In this document: positions 10,507 to 52,352 of the stretch, in pieces
Layout of the letters: each line of letters starts with the position of its first letter
Numbering within the stretch: the stretch's first letter is position 1
IMG/VR virus record: IMGVR_UViG_3300044546_000330
Location: 11,341 to 75,340 of that record
From: a virus
Direction: 5' to 3' (one strand)
DNA: 64,000 nt
Position numbers and translations under genes: made by a program
Notes under the pieces: generated by a model
Databases searched by the model: none
The model's input: the letters and a program-made list of their open reading frames with translations, nothing else
What the model was told of the DNA's origin: nothing

Positions 10507-11463
10507 ATGCTTACACTGGACCAACTCAGTGAGCAAGAAATATTAGAGCGAGTCGATGAGTACTCGCTCTATTGTTTTTATCTGGAGTTTGAACCTGTTA
10601 TAGGTAGAAAGTACCAGTCTAGACTTCGTACTAGAGATGACAAGCCTTCTTTTGGTCTATTTGAAAGAAAGTATGGTGGAGACCTACCGCATGAATTCAT
10701 GTGGAAAGATCAAGCTCTTCCATGCACTCCTAACTATGGAGACATCTTTGATCTTTTAATAGTACTGTATCAAGAAGTAGAGTCTAGGTATGAGGCTATG
10801 TTAAAAGTAGCAGCAGACTTTGGACTTATGGAAGAGGCTAGTCCTCTAATAAAACAGCTTGTCATTACTCCTGTACGTAAAGAACCTGCTCACATCAGGG
10901 TAAAGTCCAGAGAGTTCACTCATAAGGAACTTCATTACTGGGAACAGTACAATGTAAACAAGAGTATTCTGCAGTTGTATAATTGTACAGCTGTGGAATA
11001 CTTTTTTCTTTATGATACTGATGTAGTGCCCAGAAACCCCGTAACGTCTATGTATGCCTATAGAATCTTTGACAAGTACCAATTGTACAAGCCAAAGCCT
11101 AAGGAGTTTTATATGGATTGGACAGAAAGCTGTGTACCAGGGTTTAGTCAATTAGAACGTACTGACTTGTTGGTAATTACTAAGGCTATGAAAGATATTA
11201 TGTTTTTCAAGTCTTTAGGGTATGACGCTATAGCTCCGAGAGCTGAGAATATGATACCAGACCCTATGCTAATTCAGTGGATACAGAAAAGATATAATAG
11301 AGTGATTACTTTCTTCGACAACGATGGAAAGACTAGTCCTCACTTGTATCCTTTTCAATCTGTCACAATTCCTTTAGGAACTGAGACAAAAGACCCCACT
11401 GACCACTGTGCCAGGTACGGAGTAGAAAGTACTGCTGAACTTATAAAAGACTTACTAAGATGA
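10507..11463 (+). CDS. dnaG: DnaG-family (TOPRIM) primase, crAss-like type
   Basis: SRLRTRDDKPSF N-terminal motif, LVITKAMKD, FFDND, KDPTD. Confidence 0.85.
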   Translation: MLTLDQLSEQEILERVDEYSLYCFYLEFEPVIGRKYQSRLRTRDDKPSFGLFERKYGGDLPHEFMWKDQALPCTPNYGDIFDLLIVLYQEVESRYEAMLKVAADFGLMEEASPLIKQLVITPVRKEPAHIRVKSREFTHKELHYWEQYNVNKSILQLYNCTAVEYFFLYDTDVVPRNPVTSMYAYRIFDKYQLYKPKPKEFYMDWTESCVPGFSQLERTDLLVITKAMKDIMFFKSLGYDAIAPRAENMIPDPMLIQWIQKRYNRVITFFDNDGKTSPHLYPFQSVTIPLGTETKDPTDHCARYGVESTAELIKDLLR

Positions 11464-27300: not shown

Positions 27301-30300
27301 AACGCTGCTACAAGCATCCTCTCATCTACGTTTGTAGTTGCTATTTCCTTTACCAAGTCTTCATCACTATTCTTTTCTTTCTTTTCAAGAGCACTAGCAG
27401 CTTTCCACTTTGCTGTGTAGTCTCTAGCTAGTCCTTCTATAATAGTAGCTTGTAGATTAGCATTGTACTCTTCACTCAAGGAGTCATTTCCTTTTCTATA
27501 CTCTCTAGTGTAATCGTTTAAGATCTCTTGTACAGATAATGCTGTTTGAAAGTTTTTACTTAAACCCAGGTTTGGCTCTTTCTCCTTAACCTGGTGTATC
27601 ATATTCATAGCAACAAAGGCAGGATAAGTAGCCAAAGTAATATTTAAGTTATCTAGATCTCTGTTGTTAGCATTATCTACGGCGCCTGACTGATCTATGG
27701 TAATGTTATCGTGTTTTGAGTACCAAGTAGACATGTCATCAGTAGAGTCTTCTCCTCTTGAGATTGCTTCTCCCGCTAAGTGAGAAAGTCTAAGACCGTT
27801 TAATTCTAGCGGTCTAGGGTTTTCATGCACCATACCTTCTTTATCTGTATAGTAGTTTCCTAACTTTATTTCTCGTCCTTGCGTAGCAAACTTTTGTAAG
27901 TTAGCTTCTTGGGTTGAAGCTAAGGAAGTAGCGCCCACCAAAGACTTAGCATCTTTTGCAGATTGGAAAGTTTTTAATTGAGTGATAGCAGAAAAGTAAG
28001 TATGTGCCCCTGTAACTCCGCGAGCAAACTTCTTGTTAGCTTTAGCCAAGTCAGTCTTATCCAACTTAGAAAAAACTTTAGCGTACATATCCTTGTGGGT
28101 AAGTATTCCCCAGTGGATATTAAAGTAATCCTTTTGTAAAGTGTCTGTTGTTTCTTTTTCCCCACTTGTCACTTCCATGAACGAGTTAGTCTCTGGGTTA
28201 TGCCAGTAAGGTCTTTGATAAGTGTACAACTTATCCACGTCAAAGTCAGATCCCATCTGTCCTGTAATGGCTCCAGGTACTATCATCAGATCTCCCATCC
28301 ATTCAGGAGTAAAACCTACTATCTCAATAGGTATCATAGAGTTGTGGCCCTGATTAGGGATACGCGCGCCTACAAGTTGTAATAGTTCCTTAGGTACACG
28401 GGCCATGTCCAACTGGTTAGTACCTTCTATAAGGTAATCAGATACTTTCTGTTTAACGCCGTTGATGTGAAAGTTAAAAGGAGCTATGACTTGGGCCGGC
28501 AACACGTTACCATTCTCGTCCTTAGACATGTGTCTTAGAGGTTCATCAAGATTGTAGTCTCCTATTGTCACTATTCCTTTACGGTCTGCAGCTGAAAGAC
28601 TTGCTAGTCTTCGCATACCTATACTAGAAGCCTGTACATAAGACTTACCAGGCATCTTAAACTCCGTTACTTTCTTCACTTGAGCAAGTAATAACTTCTC
28701 AAATCTTTCTACTGCGCTATGAAAGAATAGCGGGTAAGCCATGTAATCTTTCTGTACTTCAACAGGGTTGCCCTTACTGTCAATCTTTGTTTCAGTTTCA
28801 GAGAGTATACCTTCTAGCAAAGCTATATCGTTAGGAGGAAACTCTCCTGCACGGGCAGCGTCTACTAGAAGTTCTATTACTTTCTTAGGTTCAATTTGTT
28901 CTGTTGCGTTTTTAATTCCAAGTTTAGAGTACAAGTCTTTAAGGTTTCTAGTAGCCATAGCTATTCGAATAGCTTCTTTACGTTGTCTTACTTCTTGCCC
29001 TGAATAAGTTTTACCAGAATCGTCGATAGTAAAGTTTGACATCTCTAATATTCCTTCTACTATTAACTTGTCCATCTGAGTAACTACACCGATCTTAGTC
29101 TTGCTTTCATCGTACGGAACCTCTTGCTGAATACGGAAGTTTGCTCTGTCCAGTTGTCTTGTACTTCTAACTAAGGCGTCTTTGTCAGGCGAAACAAACT
29201 TGTTGTCCTCGTCAAAAAGTTTAACAAGTTTTGGATTATTACCCAGTTTACTACCTGATTTAAAAGAACATCTTTGGTACAATTCTTTTCCGTCAGTAGT
29301 CTCGTGCCCTGGAAGTTTACCTTCCATTAGTAATCTTAGCTTGTCTAGTTCCGTATCTTTTGTGTACTCTTTAAACAAAGGAAAAGACATAGTCTTAAGA
29401 TAGTCATAAAAGATTAAACCATTTTCATAACGTGCCCCAGCGTATACCGGCTTCATAGCACCCATAGGTTCGATCATCTGTTGCAATTGCTCGTCACTAA
29501 AGTCTCCGTCTTTGTCTAAGACTTCTATAAGTTCGTTGTATAGTTTTTCTTCTATTTTTCCAGCCTTATACATTACATTTAAGTGCTCTCTTACAGTTGT
29601 TAACTCTTGGGCATCTGTAGCTTCTGAAGACTGTACATTACTACCAAACTTAGCTGCGTACCCATAAGTCATTGTCACGTCAGTAATAGTTAGGTGAGAG
29701 TACAAAGGATTTTCAAACTCTAGTTGTTGTCCCGGAGCAATGTCTTTTGCTAGACGTTTAGAATAGAAAGCCAAAGTCTTTTCTTCATTACCCTTCCATG
29801 CATTAGCTGGGTCTCCCATAAACATAACTACTGAAGAGGCGTTCCATAGTACTGAATTAAGAGCGTACTCATACGCAGTTCTTCTAAGTATTTCCTCGTT
29901 CTTAGTCTTTCCCTTTAGGTCTTTGTAGTTCTTTTTCTGGTACTTGGTATCTATAAGAGTATGATCAATACCGTTGTCCTTAAAGTACTGCACAGCTTCG
30001 TCACCTATTTGTGTAAGGTACTCGGCTATTCTTTCTTTTACAAAGCTTTGTACGCCGGCATCTAAAGAAGAAGCAACATTGCCTTGCTCGTCAAAAAGAA
30101 ACATACTATTTTTACCTAAAGACTCTTTGTTTAAAGTAGGGAATAGTATAAAGCGTTCACCTCCATCGTCCATTGCTTCTGAACCTGCAGTACCTTGATT
30201 TCTTTTTAACTCTTGTACTCTCTTAATACGAAGCCATTCTCCCTCGAACAGAGTGTACACTGCGTTTACTATCTCAGGGGTTAGGTTACCATCTTTCCCT

Positions 30301-33300
30301 ATAGCTTGTACTCTAGGTATGTTGCTAAAGACAGGAGTTGTAGTCTTATCTGAGTGGGCCATAGAGATCATGTGCATCAACTTGTGACCCTGGTTTGTAA
30401 ACATGTTTACTGCTACCAGTAGTTGTTCACGGTCAGACATGTTAGGACGTACTCTACCAAGTAAAGCATTGTCCATGTTCAGCCCTTCCAAGTAAGACAG
30501 GTTAAACTTATTGACATCTAGTTTGCCCATGTAATAAGTACCGCCCCACACACTTTCCTGTATAGATGTAAAGACTCCGTCTTTGTTAGTCTTAAAAGAA
30601 CTTACTATGTTAGACAAAGCGCTCGGGTACGAGTAGTCCCAGTTCTGTTTACCCTCTATAGTAGTGTGTACTGAGTTAAATAGCTTCTCACTATACCTTG
30701 ATGTAAAACTTGCAAGAACTCCCATAGTCTTTTCTTCTAAGTAGATAGGGTTATTTTCTTTTACTAAGTTCTCCAACTCTTCTGTTACACTCTCATCTAA
30801 CTCAGCCCCGTAAGTAACGCCGGCCGCTCTGTTAAAGAAGGCAGAGAATATACCGTTAGACTTACCGTTTGTAGTATTAGTAAACTGGCCAAGCCAGTCT
30901 GTACTCATTTCCTTATGAGCCATTGACGAAGTAATAAAGTCTACTCTTTGACCATTCTTGTAATAGTACCCAGCCATGTCATTAAGTACAGGCGTGGACA
31001 ACTGTATCCCGTGGGCAGCGAACATTCTTTTTAACAGAGCTTTTTGTGTAGCACGTTGTTGATCTCTTGGAACTCTTGCCTCGCTTGTTTCTTCTTTTAT
31101 AAGAGCGTCTACTAGATTAATCTGTGCTTCAGGGGATGTATTACCTATAAACAATCTTGCTGCAGGGTTAGAGATTGCTAAGTCGTTTAAGTACAAGTGT
31201 AGCTTTACTGTTAAGTCAAGTACTTCGTTAGGGTTTCTAAAGTCTACTCGTTGGAATAGTTGCATCATATTAATTACCCCAAGATGATGACGAGCTTGTT
31301 CTACGTCAAGTACCTTTTCCCCTGTCTCTCTAACCTTTATCATAGGAGAGACCATCTGTGCATCTGTCCAAGCTTTTACAATAGTTTGATTCTGTGAATA
31401 TCGTTGTGCGTTTATGACGCGAGTAGTAAGAAAGTCTTTTCCTCCGTCTGATCCTGAGTCTGCTCTTAGTACTAGGAATTTGTTATACTGCATACGCATA
31501 ACCTTAATAAACTCTTTTTGGTTTCGAACGCTAGTCTTTTCTAATCTGTCAGCAAACTCTTCTAAGTTGGCATCTCTTTGAGAACGTAGAATTGCCAACG
31601 CTTCTTCCATACGTAAGTTAGGGATGTCAGCTAAAAGGCCTTGTACATTTTCGTACATAGTGTCAAACTGAATAAGAGTAGGAATACCAAACTGAGTTTT
31701 AGCTGGCAATCGTTTCATCTTACTTCTTAAGGCTGCTTCAAGTTCTGGACCTGTGTACTCACTGTGGTACACTACCTTGTTGTTCATCTGCCTAGCCTGT
31801 GCAACTGTAAGTGTATCAGGATTGATGTGAGAAATGTCCATTGCGTCAGGCAAGATAGACATGTCTGCCAACTTGTTAACTCCTATGATGTCAAAGTGCT
31901 CACGTTCTCCTTGCCCTGCCATAAAGATTTTAAGACGTGCAGTAGCTGAGGATTTGCTATTCTTTTCAAAGGAACTATCTTGCCACCCTTTTACAACTTC
32001 AGTACGTGTATCCTCTACATTAAACTGAACGTCATCTAAGTTATCTGAGATGTAGTCCTGTATTTCTTTTTCGTAATCTGTACTCTCCTCAATATTGATT
32101 GTCATACCTTCATCTACTTTAACAAAGGTTGGATCTGTTTTCTTAAGGTTGAAGTAAGTCTTTAGTTTGCTTCGATCAGCAATGTCTATCTTGTACCCAA
32201 GTACTGCAAGGTTTTCTAGTACTGAATCAATGAAGGATAACTTGGGGTCAGTGCCATTAAAAGCAAACGAGTTTACAACGTCTTTCCACATATTACCCAT
32301 TTCAGTGTTCTCTAAAGCCATACGCTTAGATTCTTTGAGTAACTGTCCGAACAAGTGAGGTACAGAAATGTTACCGTTTGCCTGATTGTACATTAGATAG
32401 AACGTACTAGTAAGTGCGTTAATTAAACCAAGCTGAGCTTCTTTACCGTGCTTCTTGGCAAAGTAGTCTTCTACTTTACCGTTTTGATCAGTTATACAGA
32501 TTTCCATCTTAGCACTCATCTTTGCCATCTCAGTTTGATCCAGTCTCCAGGCAAGTCTTGAATTCTTAAACTCATTTATCTTATCTGTAAAGACCATCAA
32601 TAGTCTTTCTGTGTTGTTGTTCATCTCAAACAAGAAAGCCGGTGGTAGTTTTAAGTTAGGAGGAAAGTCATCTCCCATCTTAGTACGAAGATCATCTAGC
32701 ATTTGAGCGTACTCAGAAGGTTTGATACCTCTTGAGTCTGGCCAATTGTTTACTCGTGGGTTTTCCCAAGGCACAGTAAAGAGTTGATCAGGTTCGGCAA
32801 CTGCTGCAGCTACTATCTCTCTTTCTAAAAGTTCTCTTGCTTCCTTTATGTTTTCGTTGGTAAGGTTCTTTCTGCTTATAGGGTTAGGTGCCTCAGGCAT
32901 TCTGAGCATAGTTATGCCTGGAACTGCTGTGGATGTTTGAACGGGTTTACTTTCTGCAGTACTTTGTAGAGTATTCTGGTATATGTCTCTTATGGCTTGC
33001 ACAGATTCTGGCGTCATAGTACCGTTATCTTGCCTACTACCTATACCTGCAAAGTTCTTATGAAGTGTTGGTACACCTGTTTGTTCGAATGTAGTACCAT
33101 TCCACTTGTACCATTCATTTGTTTTAGTGTCAAAGACTACAACTTCTTTTCCGTTGGCTATCCCCATCTCAACAGCGTAACCAGTTCCACCATCTACAGT
33201 AGTACGTACAGCTTTAGAAGTATACCCTTTACTGTTTTTTTCCCCAGGTTGAATAAGTGGGGCTATAGCGACTACTTGTGTACTGTTTTTAACTTGATAC

Positions 33301-43188: not shown

Positions 43189-44598
43189 CTAGTATTTAAT
43201 GTTTATAGGTTTCATGTTCTTTACCATTCTCCCAGCAGTGTAAAGTTTACCGCCCATAGCTTTTATAGTTACGCCGTTTGCATCTACCTTAGGCTGGTCT
43301 TGTTCTTTCTCGTACTTGTCAGCAAGTCTTTTAAAGTACCCAGTAGGATCGTTCATGTACATTAACTTCATCTTTCTATCCTCTAAGTCGTTTTGAGACT
43401 GAGTGTTTTGCTGAGCTATGAACTTGTCTGACGCGTTAGCTAAGTTAGCTGCTTGTTGCTGAGTTATAGCGTTTGTACGTTCTGCCTCTAACATTCTTGT
43501 AGCGTATAGCTTGTCATTGTTTCTACTGTTTATAGCAGCGTTAGCAGTAGTTTGGGCGTTTCCTATTTCTACGTTCTTGTTAGTCTCTATTTCGTTTATC
43601 TTGTTCATAAACTGAAACTTCTGAGCTTTACTTGCCATGTTAGCCCTTACCGCGGTGTTAGCATCAAGTGTAGCATTATTGTTTAGTACTGCGTTACGGT
43701 AGTCACTCTGTACAGCGTTACGCTCTGAGTCTAAGCTTACTCGGCCGAACTGCGTTGGCGCGTCCATTACTGGTTGTGGTACACCAGCAGGACGTAAGTT
43801 CATGTTTGCAATGTTAGACATGTAGGGCATAGTTGAACTTGCTATACTTTGAAACTTGCTTGGTCTGCTCTCTAAAGACTTCCAGCCATCAGGCTTTCCT
43901 TGAGTTTGAGTAATAGGGGTTCCAACTACAGGCTTTTGACCTGAGGTTGTAGCAACTGTTGCATCTTCTTTCTTTGGCGGTACATAGTTAGTTACTGGAG
44001 TCAACGTGATAGGGTCGTTATTAGGTAAAGCTCTCCCGGCATTACCAGCTGTAGAAGCAGCTGTGTAAGTTGTAGACTTAGCGGGAGTTGTAGCAGTAGT
44101 TGTAGACGTTGGGGTTAAACCCATTCCCTTAGCAACTTTATCTGCGTAGGCGCCAACTGTTATCTTGTTACCAGACTTTGGTTTAGGAACTACGTTCTCA
44201 AAGTGACTTACGTTACCTGTGTACCAACCTTTGGTTAACATTCTTGCACGGTCAACGTCTGACGCGTCTGCTGGTATTTTTTTGTCTAACATAAGTAGAC
44301 CGTGTCTTGCTACAGTTCGTTCAAACTTTGGGTCATTTTGAAATCTGGATACCGCATCGTTGTAAGATTTTTGAGTCTTTGCAAGCCCCATGTCTCTGAG
44401 TATACGATTTCTAGTTCTGTCAGTTATCTGCCATCTACCACTAGCAGTATTGACTGGCTGACCTGGTGCAGCTTTAATCCTAGTACGCTTACCAGTAATG
44501 CCGCCTTCAAATCCAGGCTTAGCCATCTGGTCTAACCATCTGTCGTAAATGTCTGGTCCAGTTTGTTCTTTTACTTCGCCGTCTCCTTTTATTGCCAT
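43189..44598 (-). CDS. cargo protein with N-terminal lysozyme/transglycosylase-like domain
   Basis: FEGG...TASGRWQIT...WYTG...YADKV, Thr/Pro linker, Asn/Gln/Ala-rich coiled coil, C-terminal KAMGG. Confidence 0.6.
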   Translation of the reverse strand: MAIKGDGEVKEQTGPDIYDRWLDQMAKPGFEGGITGKRTRIKAAPGQPVNTASGRWQITDRTRNRILRDMGLAKTQKSYNDAVSRFQNDPKFERTVARHGLLMLDKKIPADASDVDRARMLTKGWYTGNVSHFENVVPKPKSGNKITVGAYADKVAKGMGLTPTSTTTATTPAKSTTYTAASTAGNAGRALPNNDPITLTPVTNYVPPKKEDATVATTSGQKPVVGTPITQTQGKPDGWKSLESRPSKFQSIASSTMPYMSNIANMNLRPAGVPQPVMDAPTQFGRVSLDSERNAVQSDYRNAVLNNNATLDANTAVRANMASKAQKFQFMNKINEIETNKNVEIGNAQTTANAAINSRNNDKLYATRMLEAERTNAITQQQAANLANASDKFIAQQNTQSQNDLEDRKMKLMYMNDPTGYFKRLADKYEKEQDQPKVDANGVTIKAMGGKLYTAGRMVKNMKPINIKY

Positions 44599-44599
44599 G

Positions 44600-47380
44600 T
44601 TATTGTAAGTTTAATTGTTTTTTCATATACTCTTGTGCAAGTTTTAACTTGTTAGTTTTATCTGCAAGAAGTTTTAAAGTGTTAAGTCTTTCAGGTGTAG
44701 AAGCTTTTGCCTCTATTTTTCCTTGCGCTTTAGCTATAGGTTTGTGAAGCGCCGCAAAGCCAAGTTGTTTTGAGAAAACATAGTCTCCTGACATAGTTTC
44801 TCCCCCTTCTATTTCTGCTTGTTGATCCGGTAAAGCTATACCACCTTGTTCGTGCGAGGGGCCTACAGCTATAGAAGCATCTTTAGACATAGGTTGGATA
44901 CTTCCCCCTACAGCTTTCTGGTTAGCCATGTAGTTAGAAGCCATAGAACCCCCTGGTCCATACATCTTAGTCCCCGTATAGTCTGTGAACTGTGCTTGTG
45001 GTCTTTTAACAGTGCCCCCATTAGCTTTCTTGTACAGACTAGAAACTGTACTAGCATCTTTCTTTAGCTGGTTAAAACTATTACCTGAAGGGGAGTAGCC
45101 TTCTTGTGCAGCGTTTACAACCATATCTCCTATTACTGGTACTCCCAGTTTTGTAAACTCACTACCTATTAAGTTTGCAGCTTTTAAGTAGTCTTTGTTT
45201 TTAAAAGCTTTTCCTGCGTCTTTACCTGTGTTGTACATATTGTAAAGTTTACCTGGATTAGTTTGGTCTAGGAGTGTTTGTACAGAGACGTTACCTGCAT
45301 AGTTAACCGCCGGGCTAAAGTCTTCTTTTTGTTTAGGAGCAGTATCTTCTACAGCTTTATTGTACTTAGAGTTAGGCTTCCAATCGTAACCAACTGGAGT
45401 TTGTGTAATCCAGTTCTTAGAATCTGCTGTATGAGTTGCTACAGTTTTTGTTTGCCCACCATTACGGTACGTAGTAAGTAGACCTTTATTCTGTCTGCCT
45501 TTTAAAGAATCTCTAAGTTCACCATATCTGGCGTGCAGACCAGGAGCTATATTGCCGTGAGCTTCATACTCCATATACTCAGGTCCTGTCACTTTAGGTT
45601 GGTAAAACTTTTGGTAATCTTTCATACTAAAGGACGGACTTCTTAACCAGTCTTTTGCCCAACCTGCAGCAACTCCTTTACCTATAGGGTTTTCTTTATC
45701 TTGTTTACTGTGAGCAGTTTCTTCTATAAGATTCCTAGTAAACTTGTTAGGGTTTTTACCTGTTGGCAGTATTATAGTACTTGAAAAAGGATTGTAATGA
45801 GGCCACGCTCCTTCTTTTGTAGTTACGTCAGGAGAGCCATTCTCTTCTAATAGTTTTTTCTTAGCTAAGTAGGAAGCAGGATCAAGCTTACCCTTACGCA
45901 TAGACCCTTGTTCTAGAACTTCTGTAGAGTTGCTGCTAGGGTTGTACACCGGCATTCCACTAGGGTTTGGTCTAAAAGTTCTAGTGTACGTACTGACAGG
46001 GCTAGGCATTTGAGGGCTAGGCGCTGGAGAAGAAGGTACGTATGTAAACTTGCTACTTGGCAAGTTGGCAGTTGTTGCGTTTGCCACTGTATCTGGTTCT
46101 GTATCTCCGCCAAAACCCATAGTCTTAAGATACCCTTTAGACAGTGCTCCTCCGTTTCTATAGTACCCACTACTAGTAGGTTTGAGATCTTGGTACCTAG
46201 ATGAATTAGAATTTATAACACTCTGTTCTGCTTTCATGTAGTCAGCCTGCCATGCATCATAAGCTTTCTTCTTAACCTTGCCAGAAGCTCTACCTCCAAT
46301 ATAACCAGCTATTCCTCCTACAGCTGCTCCAACTGCAGTACCAATAGGGCCAAAGGTAGAACCTATAGATGCTCCTGTACCCATACCTTTAGCAGCTCCT
46401 TTTATATCATCCATACTACCAGTGTCATGAGCTCCTTCTTGCTTACGTCTGTTTGTCTCAGCAAAGTTACCTATAAAAGATGTACCTGCTTGAATAGCTG
46501 CATTGTAAGACTTTGCTGCTAGTTCTTTATTTTTAAACTCATCTTGTGGTTCTGGAGTTTCTGGAGTTTCTGGAGTTGATTTGCCTTTACCTTCTGTACC
46601 TGGTGCAAATTCAGAAGTTACAAAGTTTTTTCTTTGTTGGTTGCTAGCCATGTTAAAGACACCCTCTTGTTGGGTCTGTGCAGGCATGTTTTGGTTTGTA
46701 GACCATGATGAGAATGGAGTTTGCTTACCTAAAATAACTCCATCAGTTTCATCAGTAGGACCACCAAGTAAATACTTCTTAAGTCCTTTACCATAGGCAA
46801 CATTGACTGTACCTCTTTTATCATACATCTGCTTAAGACTGCCTCCCATTGCTACATGTTGATTACCTACTAGGAGTGGTCCTCCTTTACCAAACTTATA
46901 CCTTAAACCAGCATTTACATTCTTTGAATTACTCTGCATGTCAATATCAAGTCGATCATTTACATGGTATGTTCCTGCCATTCCCATATCAGCAGGGAAC
47001 TTTTGAAAGTGTTTATTACCAACGCCGACCGCGTAAGGCCCAACAGAAAAGTCTTTAGTTTGGTAACGAGGGTTTATCCCTCCTACAATTAAGTTTTCTT
47101 TTCTGTCATTAGCAAGAAACCCGTTAAACTTTAAAGGCTTTACTTCTTGCTGTCTATTTACAGGTAAGTTTAAGTTTATACCTTTACTAGTTATATAAGG
47201 ACTCTCTTCTAATATTGGACCACCGTTACGATGTTGCCACTTAGCAGCATTCTGTGCAAAGACAGCTCTCTTCTTAGTTACTGGGTTAGAACTATGAGTA
47301 AGTTCTTCCGTACTTTTTCCGGTACGAGCTTTGGTAGCGTTAAACTTACCACGGTTTTCAGGCTTAATATGTATACTCAT
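44600..47380 (-). CDS. modular cargo protein (926 aa) with repeated xxxGG motifs
   Basis: N-terminal IHIKPENRGKF...KRAVFAQNAAKW, glycine zipper GAAKGMGTGASIG...GAAVGG, C-terminal GPSHEQGGI...EIEGGE. Confidence 0.7.
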   Translation of the reverse strand: MSIHIKPENRGKFNATKARTGKSTEELTHSSNPVTKKRAVFAQNAAKWQHRNGGPILEESPYITSKGINLNLPVNRQQEVKPLKFNGFLANDRKENLIVGGINPRYQTKDFSVGPYAVGVGNKHFQKFPADMGMAGTYHVNDRLDIDMQSNSKNVNAGLRYKFGKGGPLLVGNQHVAMGGSLKQMYDKRGTVNVAYGKGLKKYLLGGPTDETDGVILGKQTPFSSWSTNQNMPAQTQQEGVFNMASNQQRKNFVTSEFAPGTEGKGKSTPETPETPEPQDEFKNKELAAKSYNAAIQAGTSFIGNFAETNRRKQEGAHDTGSMDDIKGAAKGMGTGASIGSTFGPIGTAVGAAVGGIAGYIGGRASGKVKKKAYDAWQADYMKAEQSVINSNSSRYQDLKPTSSGYYRNGGALSKGYLKTMGFGGDTEPDTVANATTANLPSSKFTYVPSSPAPSPQMPSPVSTYTRTFRPNPSGMPVYNPSSNSTEVLEQGSMRKGKLDPASYLAKKKLLEENGSPDVTTKEGAWPHYNPFSSTIILPTGKNPNKFTRNLIEETAHSKQDKENPIGKGVAAGWAKDWLRSPSFSMKDYQKFYQPKVTGPEYMEYEAHGNIAPGLHARYGELRDSLKGRQNKGLLTTYRNGGQTKTVATHTADSKNWITQTPVGYDWKPNSKYNKAVEDTAPKQKEDFSPAVNYAGNVSVQTLLDQTNPGKLYNMYNTGKDAGKAFKNKDYLKAANLIGSEFTKLGVPVIGDMVVNAAQEGYSPSGNSFNQLKKDASTVSSLYKKANGGTVKRPQAQFTDYTGTKMYGPGGSMASNYMANQKAVGGSIQPMSKDASIAVGPSHEQGGIALPDQQAEIEGGETMSGDYVFSKQLGFAALHKPIAKAQGKIEAKASTPERLNTLKLLADKTNKLKLAQEYMKKQLNLQ
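46551..46577. repeat. 9-bp tandem repeat x3 (TCTGGAGTT) encoding TPE-TPE-TPE
   Basis: tctggagtt tctggagtt tctggagtt seen directly. Confidence 0.8.
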
Positions 47381-48174
47381 CGTAGTGCTTTTTGTGCTTG
47401 AACGGTTGTGTCATGTAAAATTAACTGTTTTTTCTGTAAGTTGTCAAACTCAAACCTAATAACAAAGTATTTATCTTGTAAAAGTTCGGCCTCATACCAG
47501 TCTTTAGTACTTGCCATTGCGGGGTCAAGCCTGTAATTGTTAAACAAGTCCTTTATAAACGTAGTGCCTCTGTCAGTTACTATATTTCTAAAGTCGTTAA
47601 AGCTCCATTTACCGTCAGTCTTTCGAGAGGTTTGATATTGTAGGTCTGCGAAGACGTCTTGTAAAGAGATCTTTCCTGAGTGTTGTTGAGAGTTCCAGAT
47701 TGAGATGTGAGTAAGTGTATTCCACTCACTCCCAACGGTACTGGCATCGGAACTATCTTCCAGTACAGATGAGACCCAGTTTACTGTTTCCAGTAAAAGT
47801 TCTCCATCAGCTTTAAACACTACATCTATAAAGAACGGGTTAACAGTGTCTGTAAAGTATTTACCTACTGGACCAGCATTAGTTTTGTACAAAGCATTGT
47901 CCTTTAAAGCAAACAAAGCTTCTCTAGTATGAAAATAGAAGTCAGGGATGTAATCATGGAAGAATACCCATGCTCCATCTTTTACAGAGTAGGACATAGT
48001 AAAAGACTTATCCACTGTATTCTCTAAAGCCAAGTCTTCAAAAGCTAGACAGTACTCAGTTTGCGAGTTACTGTTAGGAAAAGATAGCTTCATCAAGTAG
48101 ATACAAGAATGGTCCCAAGACGTTGCGTTTGGGGCAAAGTTGACTGCAGTAGTTTGATTACATCCTTGTGCCAT
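47377..48174 (-). CDS. C-terminal part of the tail stabilization/muzzle protein, as a separate gene
   Basis: KSFTMSYS...WVFFHDYIP, WNSQQHSG, WSFNDFRN, KYFVIRFEFDN; TAATG-coupled to the upstream part. Confidence 0.68.
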   Translation of the reverse strand: MAQGCNQTTAVNFAPNATSWDHSCIYLMKLSFPNSNSQTEYCLAFEDLALENTVDKSFTMSYSVKDGAWVFFHDYIPDFYFHTREALFALKDNALYKTNAGPVGKYFTDTVNPFFIDVVFKADGELLLETVNWVSSVLEDSSDASTVGSEWNTLTHISIWNSQQHSGKISLQDVFADLQYQTSRKTDGKWSFNDFRNIVTDRGTTFIKDLFNNYRLDPAMASTKDWYEAELLQDKYFVIRFEFDNLQKKQLILHDTTVQAQKALR

Positions 48175-51100
48175 TATGAGTAAGTTAAAGATATATAGTT
48201 GTTAGAGTTAAGTGTTATAGAGCCTGTTCCTGATTCAGTCACACTAGTAGCTCCTACCATTAAGTTGTGATCTATACTTACTACTACAGGGCCTGAAGGC
48301 GCCGGCAAGTTTACAACTGCAGTAAATGTACTAGATATAGAGTTTAAATTGAAAGAGCCTGTGTATGTCACACCATTTGATAGTACTTCTACATTTCCTG
48401 TGTCTGACCATCCTGGGTATCGATTCAAGTTGCCTGACAAGTGGAACTTGTAAGAGACTTTAGGTTCAGGTACAAAATAGTTAGCAAATCCACAATAAGA
48501 AGGGTCTGTGATAGTACCTGCATAACCAGTTCCTGCAGCTAAGTACTCTCCTGCTCCTAATACAACTGAGATGTTGACTGAGTAGTTACCAGTTGTAATT
48601 GTACCTGTGAGAGGAGTACCAATTAGAGTTCCAGTGCTACCTACTTTGTAAATAGTTACAGGTATATTAGAAACAGCTATTGTAGGGTTTGATAACTGAT
48701 CCATTAAGGTTACTGTGATGTCAGACAACCCAGGGTTCACAGCATACCATAAACAATAGCTTCTAGGTGAATTAACTACACGAGAAGTAGACCATTGAAT
48801 AGAACTAACCTCACTTACACACTCTGGTCCACACTCTGACCAGATATCAAACTTATAAGCAGTGTCAGGTAATAGGGCAGTAAAGTCAACAAAGTATCCT
48901 GTAGATGTTCCTGACTGTACTAGGGTATTAGTAAGAGTACCTACTTCATATAGATTCCAAGAGAATGTTCCTACTCCTCCCCATGTAACGTGAGAGGAAA
49001 CTTGGTCATTCATTAAGACTACCTTTAAGTTTATAGGGTCAATACAATCACAAGGATCTTCAGGGCAACTGTAAGTTGTGTTAAAGCTTTGACCTAAGTA
49101 AGTCAGATACTTTCCTTGGTAGAAGATGACATCTCCTATCTTAACAATACCATTAGTAGTTATAAGACAGTCAGGGTAGTTTGGAGGTCCTACTATACCT
49201 ACTACTTCTAGAATATCTGCAGGACTGTTAATAATTACTACATTAGTTCCATCTGCTGGTCTGATGTTTTTTACTGTAGCTAGTATACGTTTATACCTCT
49301 GATCCCATCCTAGAGTAATACCATTACCTGTGAAAGGGTTCTTTCCAAATATCTTTAAGTAGTCCCTTAAGAACCTGTGCATCCCTGTGTTTAGAAGAGT
49401 CAGCTCTTTAGGTTTGTATAGGTACAGTTCCCCTTGTTTAGAGTCTGCAAACACATACCCTATTGGGGTTCTTATACAGGCCAAGTTGTGTTGAGTACCT
49501 CCATACCCTAGTTTAGATGACTGAGCCTCTTGTGGTTCAAACTGGAAAATGTCTCCAGCTCCTAAAGTAATTGACAACATACCAGCTTCTAACTTACCCT
49601 TGTCCTGACTAACAAAAAGAGAATTAGTCATGTGCACAAGCATTCTATCATCCATACCTTCTAGATGTTCTATGTACCCCATGTTCTTTTGCATTTCATA
49701 GTAGTCTAAAGCTAGGAAAGTTCTCCAAGATCTTGTAGTCTGTCTAGACAACTTACCTCCTCTATGTATACGATATGGAAACTTGTCTATGTACTCTTGG
49801 TAAGGATTAAATATCACATCAGATGCAAAGTCATTGATAGCTTCTGCACCTTTAGTAAACCCAAATTGATTAGGGTCTGTGTGGCCATTGTAATCTATTG
49901 GGTACATAGCAGATAATGGCCCACCTATATAAACACTTTCTAGTTTCCTATGAGGATACCACCAAGAGTAGTTGTTACCTGGTATGTCATATCTAGTATA
50001 AAGGTTAGCTACAGTTTCACATATAAATCTATTAACTACCCTATGTCCTCTTCTATCTAATGGGAAGTCTACACCACCTTTAGTTTGTACTCCCCAGTAA
50101 TAATCTAATATTCCATAAGTATGAAAAGTATATTGGGATAAGAATATATCACCTCCCCAAAAAGAACTAGAATCTGTAAGAGTTTTAACGTCCCCTGCAG
50201 ATACTAACTCTTGAGTATAGAAAGCTTCATATATGTTTATCTTAGTATCACATAGATTAGTAAGATAATTCTCTACACTTGTTGGTCCTGAAGATGGCCA
50301 ATTTCCAGAGTCACTTAGTACAGGGTAAGTAGACATAGGCAATGGTGGACCTAGTAACTGAGCTACATAAGTAGTTTCTAAGTACCCATTAAAGTATGAT
50401 AGGTATGTACCAAAAGGAGTGTTAGCACTTTCAGCTAGTGCATTAGTATCACTAAGTAAATACTTAGGTTCTTTTAAAGCATTTATATTAAAAGCATTTA
50501 CAGAGGATACAGTAGCATTAGCAATACTATCCATCAAAGTAATAGTAAACCCTGTACCAGTAGCTCCCATTGAAGTACCTGTTGTATAAGAATAGCTACT
50601 TACTAAAGCAGTATGGGGTGTTGTTAACTTGTACTGAGCTGCTACAAAAGAAGGTGATATCAAAGGCTTATTAAACAAGACATCAAAAGAATGAAACCTT
50701 AAAAAACTTTGATTAGGTGCATACTCTTCTATGGCCCAATTGTTTCCATTACTGTAAACCTTATCATCTGTAAGAGTTGACAATGTAGGATTCCAAGGGC
50801 TTAAGTAAGTAGATCCATAAAGTGCTAACCCTTGACCATAGATAGTCATGTTCTGTAAATTCCTTTTAGCATAGAGGATTTCATACCCTATAATCTGATT
50901 AGTGTACTTAGTAGGTATAATTACATTAATAGCCTTAACACCTAAGAGGTCTAACTTTTTACAACCATAATCAGCTACCGTAGGATAGAGTTCAGTCTGA
51001 CACCATCCTAATGAAGGCATCTTGTGGTGCCTTACTCTTTCTCCTCTAAGGTCATACCCTCCAAACGATATAGAATTAAAGTCATCAGTAATTGGGTATA

Positions 51101-52352
51101 CTTCTGTGTCATTATAATAAGGACCTGTAAAACCTTCAAGGGTAACACTTGAAAAAGTATTTATATAGTCTTGAGTTTTAAACAATGGAGTGTTTCCTAA
51201 ACCTCCTGCAGTAGCTACCGGGCTAATCCCTAAAGCAGTAGCATCTGCTTCTACTCCAGGGATATGATAAGCTATTGTCATATTACCATTAGAGAGTTTA
51301 TACTTAATGTAAAAGGCATAAGTCTCTCCATGCATGAATCCTTTTTTCTGACCTGTCTTATGTTCTTCAGGACAGTTTTCAACATCAATAAGTTCTGAAG
51401 TCCAAAGCAACTGTACTAGGTTAGCATACTTCTGCATGTCTAGAATCTCATCACTCTTTTCTAACTTACCAACATACAAGGCATCATTCAATTGTGTCAT
51501 TGTACCCACCTTGTTGTAGAAGATAGGGTTGACTAACACTTCTTCAATTGATATAGTTGTAATAACTTCATTACCGGTAAATGTAGTTTTGCTGACTCCT
51601 GACACTATTGGAATCTTGTTCAGTAGTGAGGCTTTGACTATTCCACTTATTTTACTTATGACTGCAACTTCTATGAAGTCATAGGTAGTGTCAGCATTAG
51701 TAATTAGTAACTGTATTGCCTTATCAGCAAATGTTTGGTACAAATCAGACACTATAGCTATACCACTTGATACTTCAGAAAAGCCTGTTACAGTTCCATC
51801 TAATCTTGTATATCTAACAGCAAAGAAATATGAACCTACACTTAAGTAACCTCCACTCTCAATAGACTTTGTAATGGTAGGGAATATGCATTCAGGAAAT
51901 AAGTTCCATGATCTGAGCTCATCTATCTGAGGATTATCAAGATTTATGAACTTGGGAAATGTAACCTTGTCAGTAAAAGCGCATACAAGTTCTCCTAGAT
52001 TGTTTCTTTGTACTTGACCTGTAATATAGTTCTCAGCTTTGAATCCAAGTTTGTAGGTTAAAGCAGTATCAATTACAGAGAAACTTACTGTATTACTTGC
52101 TAGGTCATAGAGTTTTAACCCTGAGTTTATATCATTTGTAAAGAAGACTAAGACCTTTGTAGTATCAGTTTCAAGTATACCATTGATAGTATAACCTGCA
52201 GGAACTATGTTCTTTGTCAACTGCTTAAAGCCGGGCTCATTTGTCACAGACCCTTCTAGGTCAAACTGTAAACCATTCTTGCCGAAAGGGTACGTTCCTT
52301 CCGGCTGATCTTCTGGTCTTGTGTCTTGAGACAGTCCTTTTATTGGCTTCAT
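48174..52352 (-). CDS. tail stabilization/muzzle protein with C-terminal FN3/Ig-like additions
   Basis: KGLSQDTRPEDQPEGTY start, GSYFFAVRY, KKGFMHGETYAFYI, VRHHKMPS, WGGDIF, TPIGYVFAD, GWDQRYKRIL. Confidence 0.78.
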   Translation of the reverse strand: MKPIKGLSQDTRPEDQPEGTYPFGKNGLQFDLEGSVTNEPGFKQLTKNIVPAGYTINGILETDTTKVLVFFTNDINSGLKLYDLASNTVSFSVIDTALTYKLGFKAENYITGQVQRNNLGELVCAFTDKVTFPKFINLDNPQIDELRSWNLFPECIFPTITKSIESGGYLSVGSYFFAVRYTRLDGTVTGFSEVSSGIAIVSDLYQTFADKAIQLLITNADTTYDFIEVAVISKISGIVKASLLNKIPIVSGVSKTTFTGNEVITTISIEEVLVNPIFYNKVGTMTQLNDALYVGKLEKSDEILDMQKYANLVQLLWTSELIDVENCPEEHKTGQKKGFMHGETYAFYIKYKLSNGNMTIAYHIPGVEADATALGISPVATAGGLGNTPLFKTQDYINTFSSVTLEGFTGPYYNDTEVYPITDDFNSISFGGYDLRGERVRHHKMPSLGWCQTELYPTVADYGCKKLDLLGVKAINVIIPTKYTNQIIGYEILYAKRNLQNMTIYGQGLALYGSTYLSPWNPTLSTLTDDKVYSNGNNWAIEEYAPNQSFLRFHSFDVLFNKPLISPSFVAAQYKLTTPHTALVSSYSYTTGTSMGATGTGFTITLMDSIANATVSSVNAFNINALKEPKYLLSDTNALAESANTPFGTYLSYFNGYLETTYVAQLLGPPLPMSTYPVLSDSGNWPSSGPTSVENYLTNLCDTKINIYEAFYTQELVSAGDVKTLTDSSSFWGGDIFLSQYTFHTYGILDYYWGVQTKGGVDFPLDRRGHRVVNRFICETVANLYTRYDIPGNNYSWWYPHRKLESVYIGGPLSAMYPIDYNGHTDPNQFGFTKGAEAINDFASDVIFNPYQEYIDKFPYRIHRGGKLSRQTTRSWRTFLALDYYEMQKNMGYIEHLEGMDDRMLVHMTNSLFVSQDKGKLEAGMLSITLGAGDIFQFEPQEAQSSKLGYGGTQHNLACIRTPIGYVFADSKQGELYLYKPKELTLLNTGMHRFLRDYLKIFGKNPFTGNGITLGWDQRYKRILATVKNIRPADGTNVVIINSPADILEVVGIVGPPNYPDCLITTNGIVKIGDVIFYQGKYLTYLGQSFNTTYSCPEDPCDCIDPINLKVVLMNDQVSSHVTWGGVGTFSWNLYEVGTLTNTLVQSGTSTGYFVDFTALLPDTAYKFDIWSECGPECVSEVSSIQWSTSRVVNSPRSYCLWYAVNPGLSDITVTLMDQLSNPTIAVSNIPVTIYKVGSTGTLIGTPLTGTITTGNYSVNISVVLGAGEYLAAGTGYAGTITDPSYCGFANYFVPEPKVSYKFHLSGNLNRYPGWSDTGNVEVLSNGVTYTGSFNLNSISSTFTAVVNLPAPSGPVVVSIDHNLMVGATSVTESGTGSITLNSNNYISLTYS

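Follow-up and report, generated by a model that had tools for sequence, protein, structure and literature searches.

Cassettes joined by aromatic-x-x-Gly-Gly seams in cargo protein 1 of a divergent crAss-like phage

Cargo protein 1 and its locus

We analyzed a 64-kb window of DNA (64,000 nucleotides; positions 11,341 to 75,340 of IMG/VR record IMGVR_UViG_3300044546_000330) from a divergent crAss-like phage, represented by a 75-kb contig with an estimated completeness of 83% (CheckV). The element under study is a 926-amino-acid (aa) open reading frame (ORF) on the minus strand (P0001; window positions 44600-47380), which is punctuated by short peptides ending in Gly-Gly (GG). It lies in a minus-strand block of virion genes with ORFs, in gene order, of 1392, 265, 926, 469, 810, 1754, and 4713 aa. 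The 4713-aa protein matched the crAss001 RNA polymerase (RNAP) gp50, and the 1754-aa protein was weakly similar to gp47. By these matches, the 926-aa and 469-aa ORFs (the latter P0002; 43189-44598, minus strand) occupy the positions of cargo protein 1 (C1, gp45) and cargo protein 2 (C2, gp46), and C1 is placed, as in crAss001, between the muzzle gene and the genes for C2 and the virion RNAP. The C1 protein and its portal domain are already known (PMC10172136; Pfam PF25725, crAss_CARG1), and in crAss001 the docking domain of C1 sits on the portal wing inside the capsid (PMC10172136).

The 926-aa ORF encodes C1 (gp45-type) of this phage, as an expanded member of the family. A first-pass annotation had called it a crAss-like cargo protein from the letters of the DNA alone, and both profile matches to gp45-type C1 proteins and synteny bear this out. 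A direct Pfam scan of the protein did not detect CARG1 at E ≤ 1, and Pfam and PHROGs recognized only a glycine zipper at about residues 326-366, with weak Pfam matches. When the C-terminal alignment was compared by hhalign with canonical C1 proteins carrying Pfam crAss_CARG1, the match reached 98.7% (E 4.7e-16, 153 columns). A profile of the C-terminal region matched PDB chain 7qog_M, "Cargo protein 1 gp45" (E 8.7e-6), with most of the score contributed by the glycine zipper and coil; the docking domain by itself was weak (12.8 bits). An AlphaFold2 (AF2) model of residues 771-926 had a predicted local distance difference test score (pLDDT) of 84.5, rising above 90 from residue ~820, and its best Foldseek match in the PDB was again 7qog_M, a weak one (E 0.6, TM score 0.38/0.46). 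A PDB sequence search with the single C-terminal domain as query returned only Tudor matches at chance level. At the other end of the protein, residues 1-54 were 52% identical to gp45 residues 376-423.

We found 2186 relatives of the protein among 1.8 billion representatives, most of which shared only the last ~120 residues. These carry the pattern GPSHExGG ... EVEGGET ... YVFS ... LGF, followed by two helices. In its minimal, ~250-aa form, C1 starts with a short peptide (M..L..RYKKYxxGG) and continues with a glycine-zipper hairpin, then a coil, and last the docking domain. A predicted membrane-active Gly-rich helix ahead of the docking domain was found in the 926-aa protein as well, where AF2 modeled a helical hairpin at residues 322-395 that aligns with gp45 118-234. 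Thirty of 32 IMG/VR loci with a docking domain yielded a C1 ORF, 253 to 980 residues long. A gene of 1230-1790 aa preceded C1 and a C2-like gene followed it in all 30, most had a gene of ~260 aa directly upstream of C1, and genes of ~750 and ~1750 aa lay downstream where the locus was long enough.

The arrangement is close to that of crAss001 gp45 (Bayfield et al. 2023, PMC10172136; 7QOG chain M; PF25725), whose gene likewise follows the muzzle gene and precedes the C2 and RNAP cargo genes. The two proteins share a Gly-rich predicted membrane hairpin, a homologous portal-docking domain, and the mini-domain at residues 1-54, hereafter module A. They differ in layout: the docking domain is at the extreme C terminus here, whereas gp45 has ~290 residues beyond it, and module A is N-terminal here and internal in gp45. 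Module B (residues 55-167) and the modules at residues 426-642 and 643-789 have no gp45 counterpart. gp45 itself has 21 GG dipeptides against 13.3 expected, with junction peptides such as FDTGG, SAYGG, FAEGG, KAFGG, NAFGG, FAYGG, and EYTGG.

Motif counts and module exchange

All ten xxxGG motifs listed in the first-pass annotation are present: HRNGG (residues 50-54), FGKGG (163-167), VAMGG (176-180), YLLGG (203-207), YRNGG (407-411), MGFGG (421-425), YRNGG (638-642), KANGG (785-789), YGPGG (807-811), and KAVGG (822-826). Five more GG dipeptides occur in the ORF, two in the glycine zipper and one each in IVGG (98-101), HEQGG, and IEGG. With a glycine content of 10.7%, the raw count of 15 GG did not differ significantly from shuffled sequences (10.5 ± 2.9, P = 0.08), and GG enrichment as such was therefore rejected as evidence. 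The motif [YFWHM]xxGG occurred 8 times against 1.3 expected (0 of 20,000 shuffles) and [YFW]xxGG 5 times against 0.9 expected (P = 0.0025), P values that are optimistic since the motif class was chosen post hoc, so we relied more on independent sequences. Among 171 non-redundant relatives there were 1737 GG against 1160 expected. Basic and aromatic residues were enriched before the GG, with a peak of aromatic residues and His three positions before the first Gly. The seam peptide can thus be described as an aromatic residue, Met, or His, two variable residues (often basic, Ala, or Asn), and GG. The residue after the GG is unconstrained and often Pro, as in three of the ten motifs of the 926-aa ORF. 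The GG codons vary freely among GGT, GGA, GGG, and GGC, so the motif is conserved at the protein level, and a DNA-level signal (a Shine-Dalgarno-like GGAGG or a recombination hotspot) was rejected on the same ground.

Judged by comparison with its relatives, the 926-aa protein is a mosaic of swappable cassettes joined by aromatic-x-x-Gly-Gly seams. The first-pass annotation had placed the motifs at borders between unrelated modules and had proposed testing whether module gain and loss in homologs breaks at them; both alignment ends and cassette insertions and deletions running from GG to GG agreed with this. BLAST alignment ends against P0001 pile up at residues 54-57, 167, and 413-415, just past HRNGG, FGKGG, and YRNGG. 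Across the 171 non-redundant relatives, 34% of local-alignment ends fell 0-4 residues after a GG, against 12.5% of random positions. The breakpoint ratio was 3.2 for [YFW]xxGG and 1.1 for GG lacking an aromatic residue, Met, or His three residues ahead of the first Gly; control dipeptides gave 0.4-2.0. Relatedness among the sequences inflates these values, but aromatic and non-aromatic GG were contrasted within one dataset.

The close relatives show the exchanges directly. In some, an N-terminal extension of 83 aa made of six GG-ended mini-units ends in ...YKNGG just ahead of module A. Module B is absent exactly from GG to GG in three proteins of the close-relative alignment (P0006-P0008). After ...VAY, within the mini-modules at residues 168-207, some relatives have one of two unrelated cassettes, one of them a module A variant. 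Between ...YY(R/A)NGG and ...GG-SMASNYMA, the region 412-811 is either absent or exchanged for unrelated sequence; in P0112 it is missing from GG to GG. There are exceptions to the rule: a mosaic patch at about residues 225-290 was swapped between lineages without GG borders, and the insertion or deletion at the VAY site is bounded by a GKG repeat beside a GG.

Module A, of 52 residues, is a mobile unit. It is found at any position in relatives, sometimes twice in one protein, inside crAss001 gp45 (375-428), and in stand-alone "transcriptional regulator" ORFs of Suoliviridae. Among 52 distinct copies, a GG lay within 0-2 residues before 34 of the 49 internal copies and within 9 residues after 47 of 50; N-terminal copies have nothing before them, and two C-terminal copies have no GG after them. 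Distant C1-like proteins with LysM, amidase, glucosaminidase, YkuD, and lysozyme domains end nearly every module in a seam-like peptide (YYGLGG, KYQKGG, NYKQGG, KFKNGG, TWEEGG, MYGPGG). The domains recognized in relatives were LysM, Amidase_2, Glucosaminidase, YkuD, Phage_lysozyme2, DUF5754, DUF5872, and DUF5661. We found no published description of the seam peptide, the cassette exchange, or the C2 tail considered below in the literature searched, and the crAss001 paper describes no seam motif, module exchange, or proteolysis (PMC10172136).

Several side observations concern these mobile units. The C1-like proteins P0014, P0016, and P0019 carry DUF5754, DUF5872, and DUF5661, small modules common to very different virus groups. 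DUF5754 is the Tlr6F module, found also in polinton-like viruses and giant viruses (PMC12220804). The stand-alone copies of module A are 70- to 77-aa proteins adjoining RecX-like genes in Suoliviridae cr1_1 (L037, 550-765), cr52_1 (L038, 532-765), and cr114_1 (L039, 553-762). In each, a leader of 16-22 residues that ends in ...YK(D/N)GG precedes IHIKKK, and in two of them the C terminus is ...WKHKGRKKK, with no GG. At a position occupied by Gln in the others, the cr114_1 copy carries an in-frame stop, after which it diverges; the stop fits the recoding of stop codons known from some crAss-like phages.

The full-length AF2 model of the 926-aa protein had a mean pLDDT of 52, with 598 of 926 residues below 50; its confident parts were residues 1-45, 320-395, 700-745, and 820-926. 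All modules are encoded on the minus strand, and we describe them from the N terminus. Module A (residues 1-54; 47219-47380) is a basic three-helix mini-domain (IHIKPENRGKF...AKNAAKW; pLDDT 74-88) that ends in the seam HRNGG. Module B (46880-47218), with the seam FGKGG, is probably beta-rich, and was seen in relatives whose other domains include LysM, amidase, glucosaminidase, or YkuD. Its structural look-alikes in the Atlas were the outer-membrane beta-barrel families DUF2490, DUF4858, and DUF5777, a lead only, from a poor underlying model, and its look-alikes by sequence features were the insect glycine-rich antibacterial proteins attacin and gloverin (score 0.83). As a lead, these likenesses raise the thought that module B might act on the outer membrane. 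Two mini-modules follow (168-207; 46760-46879; PLLVGNQHVAMGG and SLKQ...KKYLLGG), short strand-like units ending in GG that include the insertion site, after ...VAY, at which relatives have other cassettes. A Pro/Thr/Gln-rich stretch of low confidence (208-319; 46424-46759) leads to a glycine-zipper helical hairpin and a long helix (320-411; 46148-46423; pLDDT 67-84) that end in the seam YYRNGG; this part corresponds to the region of crAss001 gp45 that is predicted to be transmembrane.

The mini-module ALSKGYLKTMGFGG (412-425) and a lineage-specific module (426-642) together span 45455-46147 and end in the seam YRNGG; the lineage-specific module was shared only with the 91%-identical P0003. 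The module labels of the first-pass annotation were only partly right, and the zincin-like one, at about this module, fell: neither HExxH nor HxxEH occurs anywhere in the 926-aa protein and there was no peptidase or other Pfam match, so a zincin metallopeptidase module was rejected. The next module, a helical one (643-789; 45014-45454), has the seam KANGG directly at the end of a predicted helix, and from about residue 698 on it is common to P0006, P0113, P0121, P0129, and P0182. Two pre-domain mini-modules (790-826; 44903-45013) end in YGPGG, which forms a tight beta-hairpin turn in the AF2 domain model, and in KAVGG. The C-terminal CARG1-type domain (827-926 with the stop codon; 44600-44902; GPSHEQGG...EIEGGET..YVFS..LGF and two helices) is the part modeled above pLDDT 90. 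The seams at residues 50-54, 407-411, and 785-789 lie at transitions from confident helical modules to low-pLDDT sequence. Helix capping was rejected as a general role of the seams, which lie 0 to 11 residues past helix ends.

The C2 tail and the other cargo genes

The first-pass annotation had proposed a packaging or release tag. In this genome, the motif proved to be enriched only in the 926-aa ORF: there were eight copies in it, three in the 4713-aa RNAP fusion, two in the 1754-aa protein, and none in the 810-aa and 469-aa proteins. In 27 related loci, the number of [YFW]xxGG per 1000 residues was 5.0 in C1 and 1.6 in C2, against 0.1 and 0.4 in the two cargo genes that follow and 0.6 in the muzzle gene. 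A general cargo tag was therefore rejected, the aromatic motif being 3- to 40-fold sparser in other cargo ORFs, here and in the related loci.

The 469-aa ORF is, by gene order, the positional analogue of C2. It had no Pfam or PHROG match, contains two GG (2.0 expected), and has no aromatic-xxGG. The first-pass annotation had it end with KAMGG; the KAMGG is there, but it lies 21 residues before the end and is not terminal. The resulting tail (residues 445-469; 43192-43266, minus strand; IKAMGGKLYTAGRMVKNMKPINIKY) comprises a conserved GG and a short basic stretch. In all 20 canonical related loci, the end of the C2-like ORF is built alike: a residue that is aromatic, Leu, or Met (Asn at one locus) precedes GG, which is followed by 8-25 mostly basic residues. 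At the sequence level, this conservation of a GG with a basic tail in C2 appears to be a new observation. Four of the C2-like tails end in Cys (L008, GGNIGRRKVKC; L010, GGKMIKPFC; L017, GGKMHKIC; and L028, GGKLKRC), which recalls the Cys-containing adenovirus pVIc peptide and may be a coincidence.

The 265-aa ORF just upstream of C1 (47377-48174, minus strand) matched only the last ~240 positions of PHROG "virion structural protein" families of 1500-1780 aa. Most related loci have a gene of ~250-270 aa just before C1 that is preceded by one of ~1350-1790 aa, the counterpart of which in the window lies at 48174-52352 (minus strand). Because the 265-aa ORF aligns to the C-terminal ends of the PHROG families and such paired genes occur in most loci, the muzzle-type gene appears either to be split in this lineage or to be a fusion in others.

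Cleavage, connectors, and competing explanations

The first-pass annotation had suggested that the protein is cut at the GG seams by a cognate protease, to be looked for elsewhere in the genome. Searches with Pfam, PHROG, and peptidase families found no such protease. Seven peptidase families were searched in four or five complete relatives, and five of them, together with ThiF, also in this genome; since this genome is 83% complete, the complete relatives carry the weight of the negative results. Peptidase_C5 (adenain) and Peptidase_C48 (Ulp1) were absent at E ≤ 1 from five complete relatives, the only genomes in which these two were searched. S78 (HK97-type prohead protease) and Prok-JAB were not found in the five complete relatives, and Peptidase_C39, Asp_protease_2, and Trypsin_2 were not found in this genome or in four complete relatives. 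When 35 ORFs of the window were scanned against Pfam and PHROGs, only replication and structural genes and no protease were recognized, although a novel protease could escape Pfam. ThiF (E1-like) was not found in this genome, and the idea of a ubiquitin-like E1/JAB conjugation was rejected, with no ThiF here and no Prok-JAB in the five complete relatives. As a separate observation, in the crAss001-like phage L003 (NC_055883.1) a ThiF gene adjoins a metalloprotease-domain gene (28842-30730 of the locus), and genes annotated as an aspartyl protease and a serine protease are present as well. Such a pair of E1 and peptidase in a phage with a Gly-Gly-rich cargo protein may deserve a look.

The crAss001 virion offers a direct view of homologous seams. 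Residues 425-552 of gp45 form one modeled stretch on the portal wing (126 residues, chain M) that contains GG at 427-428, the seam after the module A homolog, and at 434-435 and 447-448. Because all three lie within one continuous modeled chain, they appear to be uncut in the virion. Nothing shows that the 926-aa protein is cut at its seams, although cutting at other seams or following injection may still occur.

We see about an even chance that the seams are uncut connectors or hinges and that their versions at protein ends act as handles; these roles, and the absence of cleavage, are what we infer. The conserved core is the glycine-zipper membrane hairpin followed by the CARG1-type domain, with accessory modules strung ahead of and between them on long, probably unfolded stretches. 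The seams would stay uncut in the virion and serve as standard connectors in which the GG provides a tight turn or swivel, so that each module could unfold and refold alone while the chain threads through the portal and tail. The crAss001 authors propose storage and piecewise extrusion for gp45 (PMC10172136). An in-frame exchange between any two seams would yield a working protein, and the modules would be interchangeable cassettes because all junctions look alike. The same peptide at protein ends, namely the N terminus of minimal C1 and the basic C-terminal tail of C2, would probably be a docking handle inside the particle.

Several points weigh against this reading. The low pLDDT between modules may stem partly from poorly aligned mosaic homologs and not from real disorder. 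The aromatic residue three positions before the first Gly is conserved, and because a plain flexible linker needs none, the motif looks as if it were recognized by some partner. Short GG-ended leaders and short basic tails after GG resemble the cut ends of adenovirus core precursors. Two of the three aromatic seams that flank ordered segments of gp45, including the one at 559-563 after the portal domain, are not resolved in the map, and none of the four gp45 peptides from liquid chromatography-tandem mass spectrometry (79-101, 181-190, 275-300, and 307-320) spans a seam. We also matched the published matrix-assisted laser desorption/ionization (MALDI) peak lists of crAss001 virion gel bands (PMC6235969, supplementary file 14) to theoretical digests. 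Bands 3-9 identified gp50/gp47, gp49, the portal gp20, gp26/gp22, gp22/gp25, gp25, and gp23. gp45 (90.7 kDa) was at chance level in every band of at least 70 kDa, and the portal, which has an equal expected copy number, was detected; this peptide-mass test covers the larger bands, as the list for band 10 has seven peaks and bands 11-13 are not included. The lack of a gp45 signal in the bands of at least 70 kDa is compatible with processing and far from proof of it. Separately, gel bands 1-2 (>300 kDa) were best explained by the 156-kDa muzzle gp44 (6 of 15 and 12 of 38 peaks), which suggests SDS-resistant oligomers of gp44.

The MALDI result belongs to the case for a processing code, in which a phage or host protease would cut after the GG, C1 would be a polyprotein whose modules are freed in the particle or after injection, and the C1 leader and the C2 tail would be trimmed, as happens to the core precursors of adenovirus and African swine fever virus and to the inner-body proteins of phiKZ. 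We consider this unlikely, and the fuller proposal, that the seams, the C1 leader, and the C2 tail make up a maturation code cut in the particle or just after injection, with crassvirus ejection proteins as true polyproteins, slightly more so. Such a code would account for the stereotyped peptide at junctions, after N-terminal leaders of 15-25 residues, and before basic tails of 8-25 residues, as well as for the lack of full-length gp45 in the gel bands in which the portal was seen; moreover, the two ordered parts of gp45 lie ~420 Å apart across the portal tunnel, and fragments would avoid the threading of 12 chains. It is opposed by the absence of all seven searched protease families from four or five complete relatives, by the three GG, the module A seam among them, within one continuous virion chain, by the many inter-seam units of only 7-15 residues, which would be pointless as peptides, and by the lack of the motif in other cargo proteins. 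The unconstrained residue after the GG, often Pro, also argues against a cut, and ubiquitin-type proteases cut Gly-Gly-Pro junctions poorly. Clan CE cysteine proteases, adenain and pS273R of African swine fever virus (which acts on pp220/pp62), process internal virion proteins at Gly-Gly-X, and the likeness to these systems lies in a GG that follows short leaders, precedes short basic tails, and also occurs internally. The adenain consensus, (M/I/L)-x-G-G↓x, in which P4 is hydrophobic, fits only YLLGG in the 926-aa ORF, where the enriched residue is at P5, one position farther from the GG, and Gly-Gly-Pro is common; further differences are the lack of a clan CE protease in the five complete relatives and the apparently uncut homologous seams in the crAss001 structure. 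Short recurring multi-site motifs in injected internal proteins are also known from phiKZ, in which gp175 cuts at S/A/G-X-Glu, and T4, in which gp21 cuts at Leu/Ile-X-Glu, but their last residue is Glu and both phages encode a prohead protease, whereas no prohead protease family was detected here. Double-glycine leaders have a hydrophobic residue at -4, where the seams have the aromatic three residues before the first Gly (P5), and their Peptidase_C39 was absent from this genome and four complete relatives.

Another alternative is a sticker or docking motif, in which strand-turn peptides add themselves to the beta-sheets of 12-fold partners, to each other, or to the outer membrane or lipopolysaccharide. 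This, too, is an unlikely account, and its more specific form, with portal wing loops and tail ring proteins as partners, a role in holding unfolded cargo or building a pore, and a secondary importance of the border position, is likewise doubtful. In its favor, two gp45 seams, AFGG and QGG, are ordered at the portal wing, a site of interdigitation between C1 and SH3-like loops; the mini-units of 7-15 residues occur in tandem, each ended by a motif; YGPGG is modeled as a hairpin; residues 150-207 alternate strand-like segments split by GG or GKG; basic and aromatic residues are enriched before the GG; and the look-alikes of module B, as a lead from a poor model, are outer-membrane barrel families. 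However, the gp45 tail-barrel helix at 214-245 starts four residues after FSAYGG, a seam not resolved in the map, the seam at 559-563 is unordered as well, and copies of module A at protein ends have no motif on their free side, as expected of a joint and not of a hook borne by the module. That the motif has no specific function, being a by-product of Gly-rich disorder and of illegitimate recombination at GGNGGN microhomology with tolerated insertions and deletions, is very improbable. The glycine content of 10.7%, the raw GG count within chance (P = 0.08), the patch at ~225-290 exchanged without GG borders, and the one insertion or deletion bounded by a GKG repeat count in its favor. Yet breakpoints are marked by aromatic-xxGG only (3.2 against 1.1), variable codons leave minimal DNA microhomology, the excess of [YFWHM]xxGG in the 926-aa ORF (8 against 1.3 expected) would go unexplained, and conservation of the peptide extends from this phage to gp45 and to the C-terminal tail of C2 in all 20 canonical loci.

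C1 has parallels in other delivery systems. The ejection proteins gp14/gp15/gp16 of T7 and gp7/gp16/gp20 of P22 are likewise stored in the head on the portal, ejected before the DNA, and build a trans-envelope conduit (PMC10172136). Peptidoglycan hydrolase modules (lysozyme, amidase, glucosaminidase) occur in relatives of this C1, much as T7 gp16 carries a transglycosylase. We found no sequence or fold similarity between this C1 and the podophage ejection proteins of T7 and P22. To our knowledge, the T7 and P22 proteins have neither a stereotyped peptide at junctions nor an exchange of cassettes. The polymorphic toxins (CdiA with VENN, Rhs with PxxxxDPxGL; Zhang et al. 2012, PMC3482391) and MuF-fused head toxins also combine a conserved trafficking part, exchangeable modules, and a junction peptide. 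C1 has this combination of a delivery part, variable modules, and a junction peptide as a matter of mechanism and not of homology. It differs in having many seams per protein instead of one, and the modules of its relatives are cell-wall enzymes and small binding domains. No toxin domain was recognized among the modules, and no immunity genes were noticed, though none were searched for.

Crassviruses are the most abundant human gut phages and inject ~5 MDa of protein cargo in a manner not yet understood. A standard seam for swapping modules in the first-ejected cargo protein would explain how their entry machinery diversifies, the swapped modules including cell-wall enzymes, membrane-active parts, and DNA-binding-like mini-domains. 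If the seams were cut, they would reveal a new maturation system in a phage lineage without a known maturation protease. If they are uncut, they would represent a natural "beads on a string" solution to the passage of unfolded proteins through a narrow channel, one that could be reused for loading foreign modules into phage particles. In crAss001 gp45, the seams provide a simple experimental handle.

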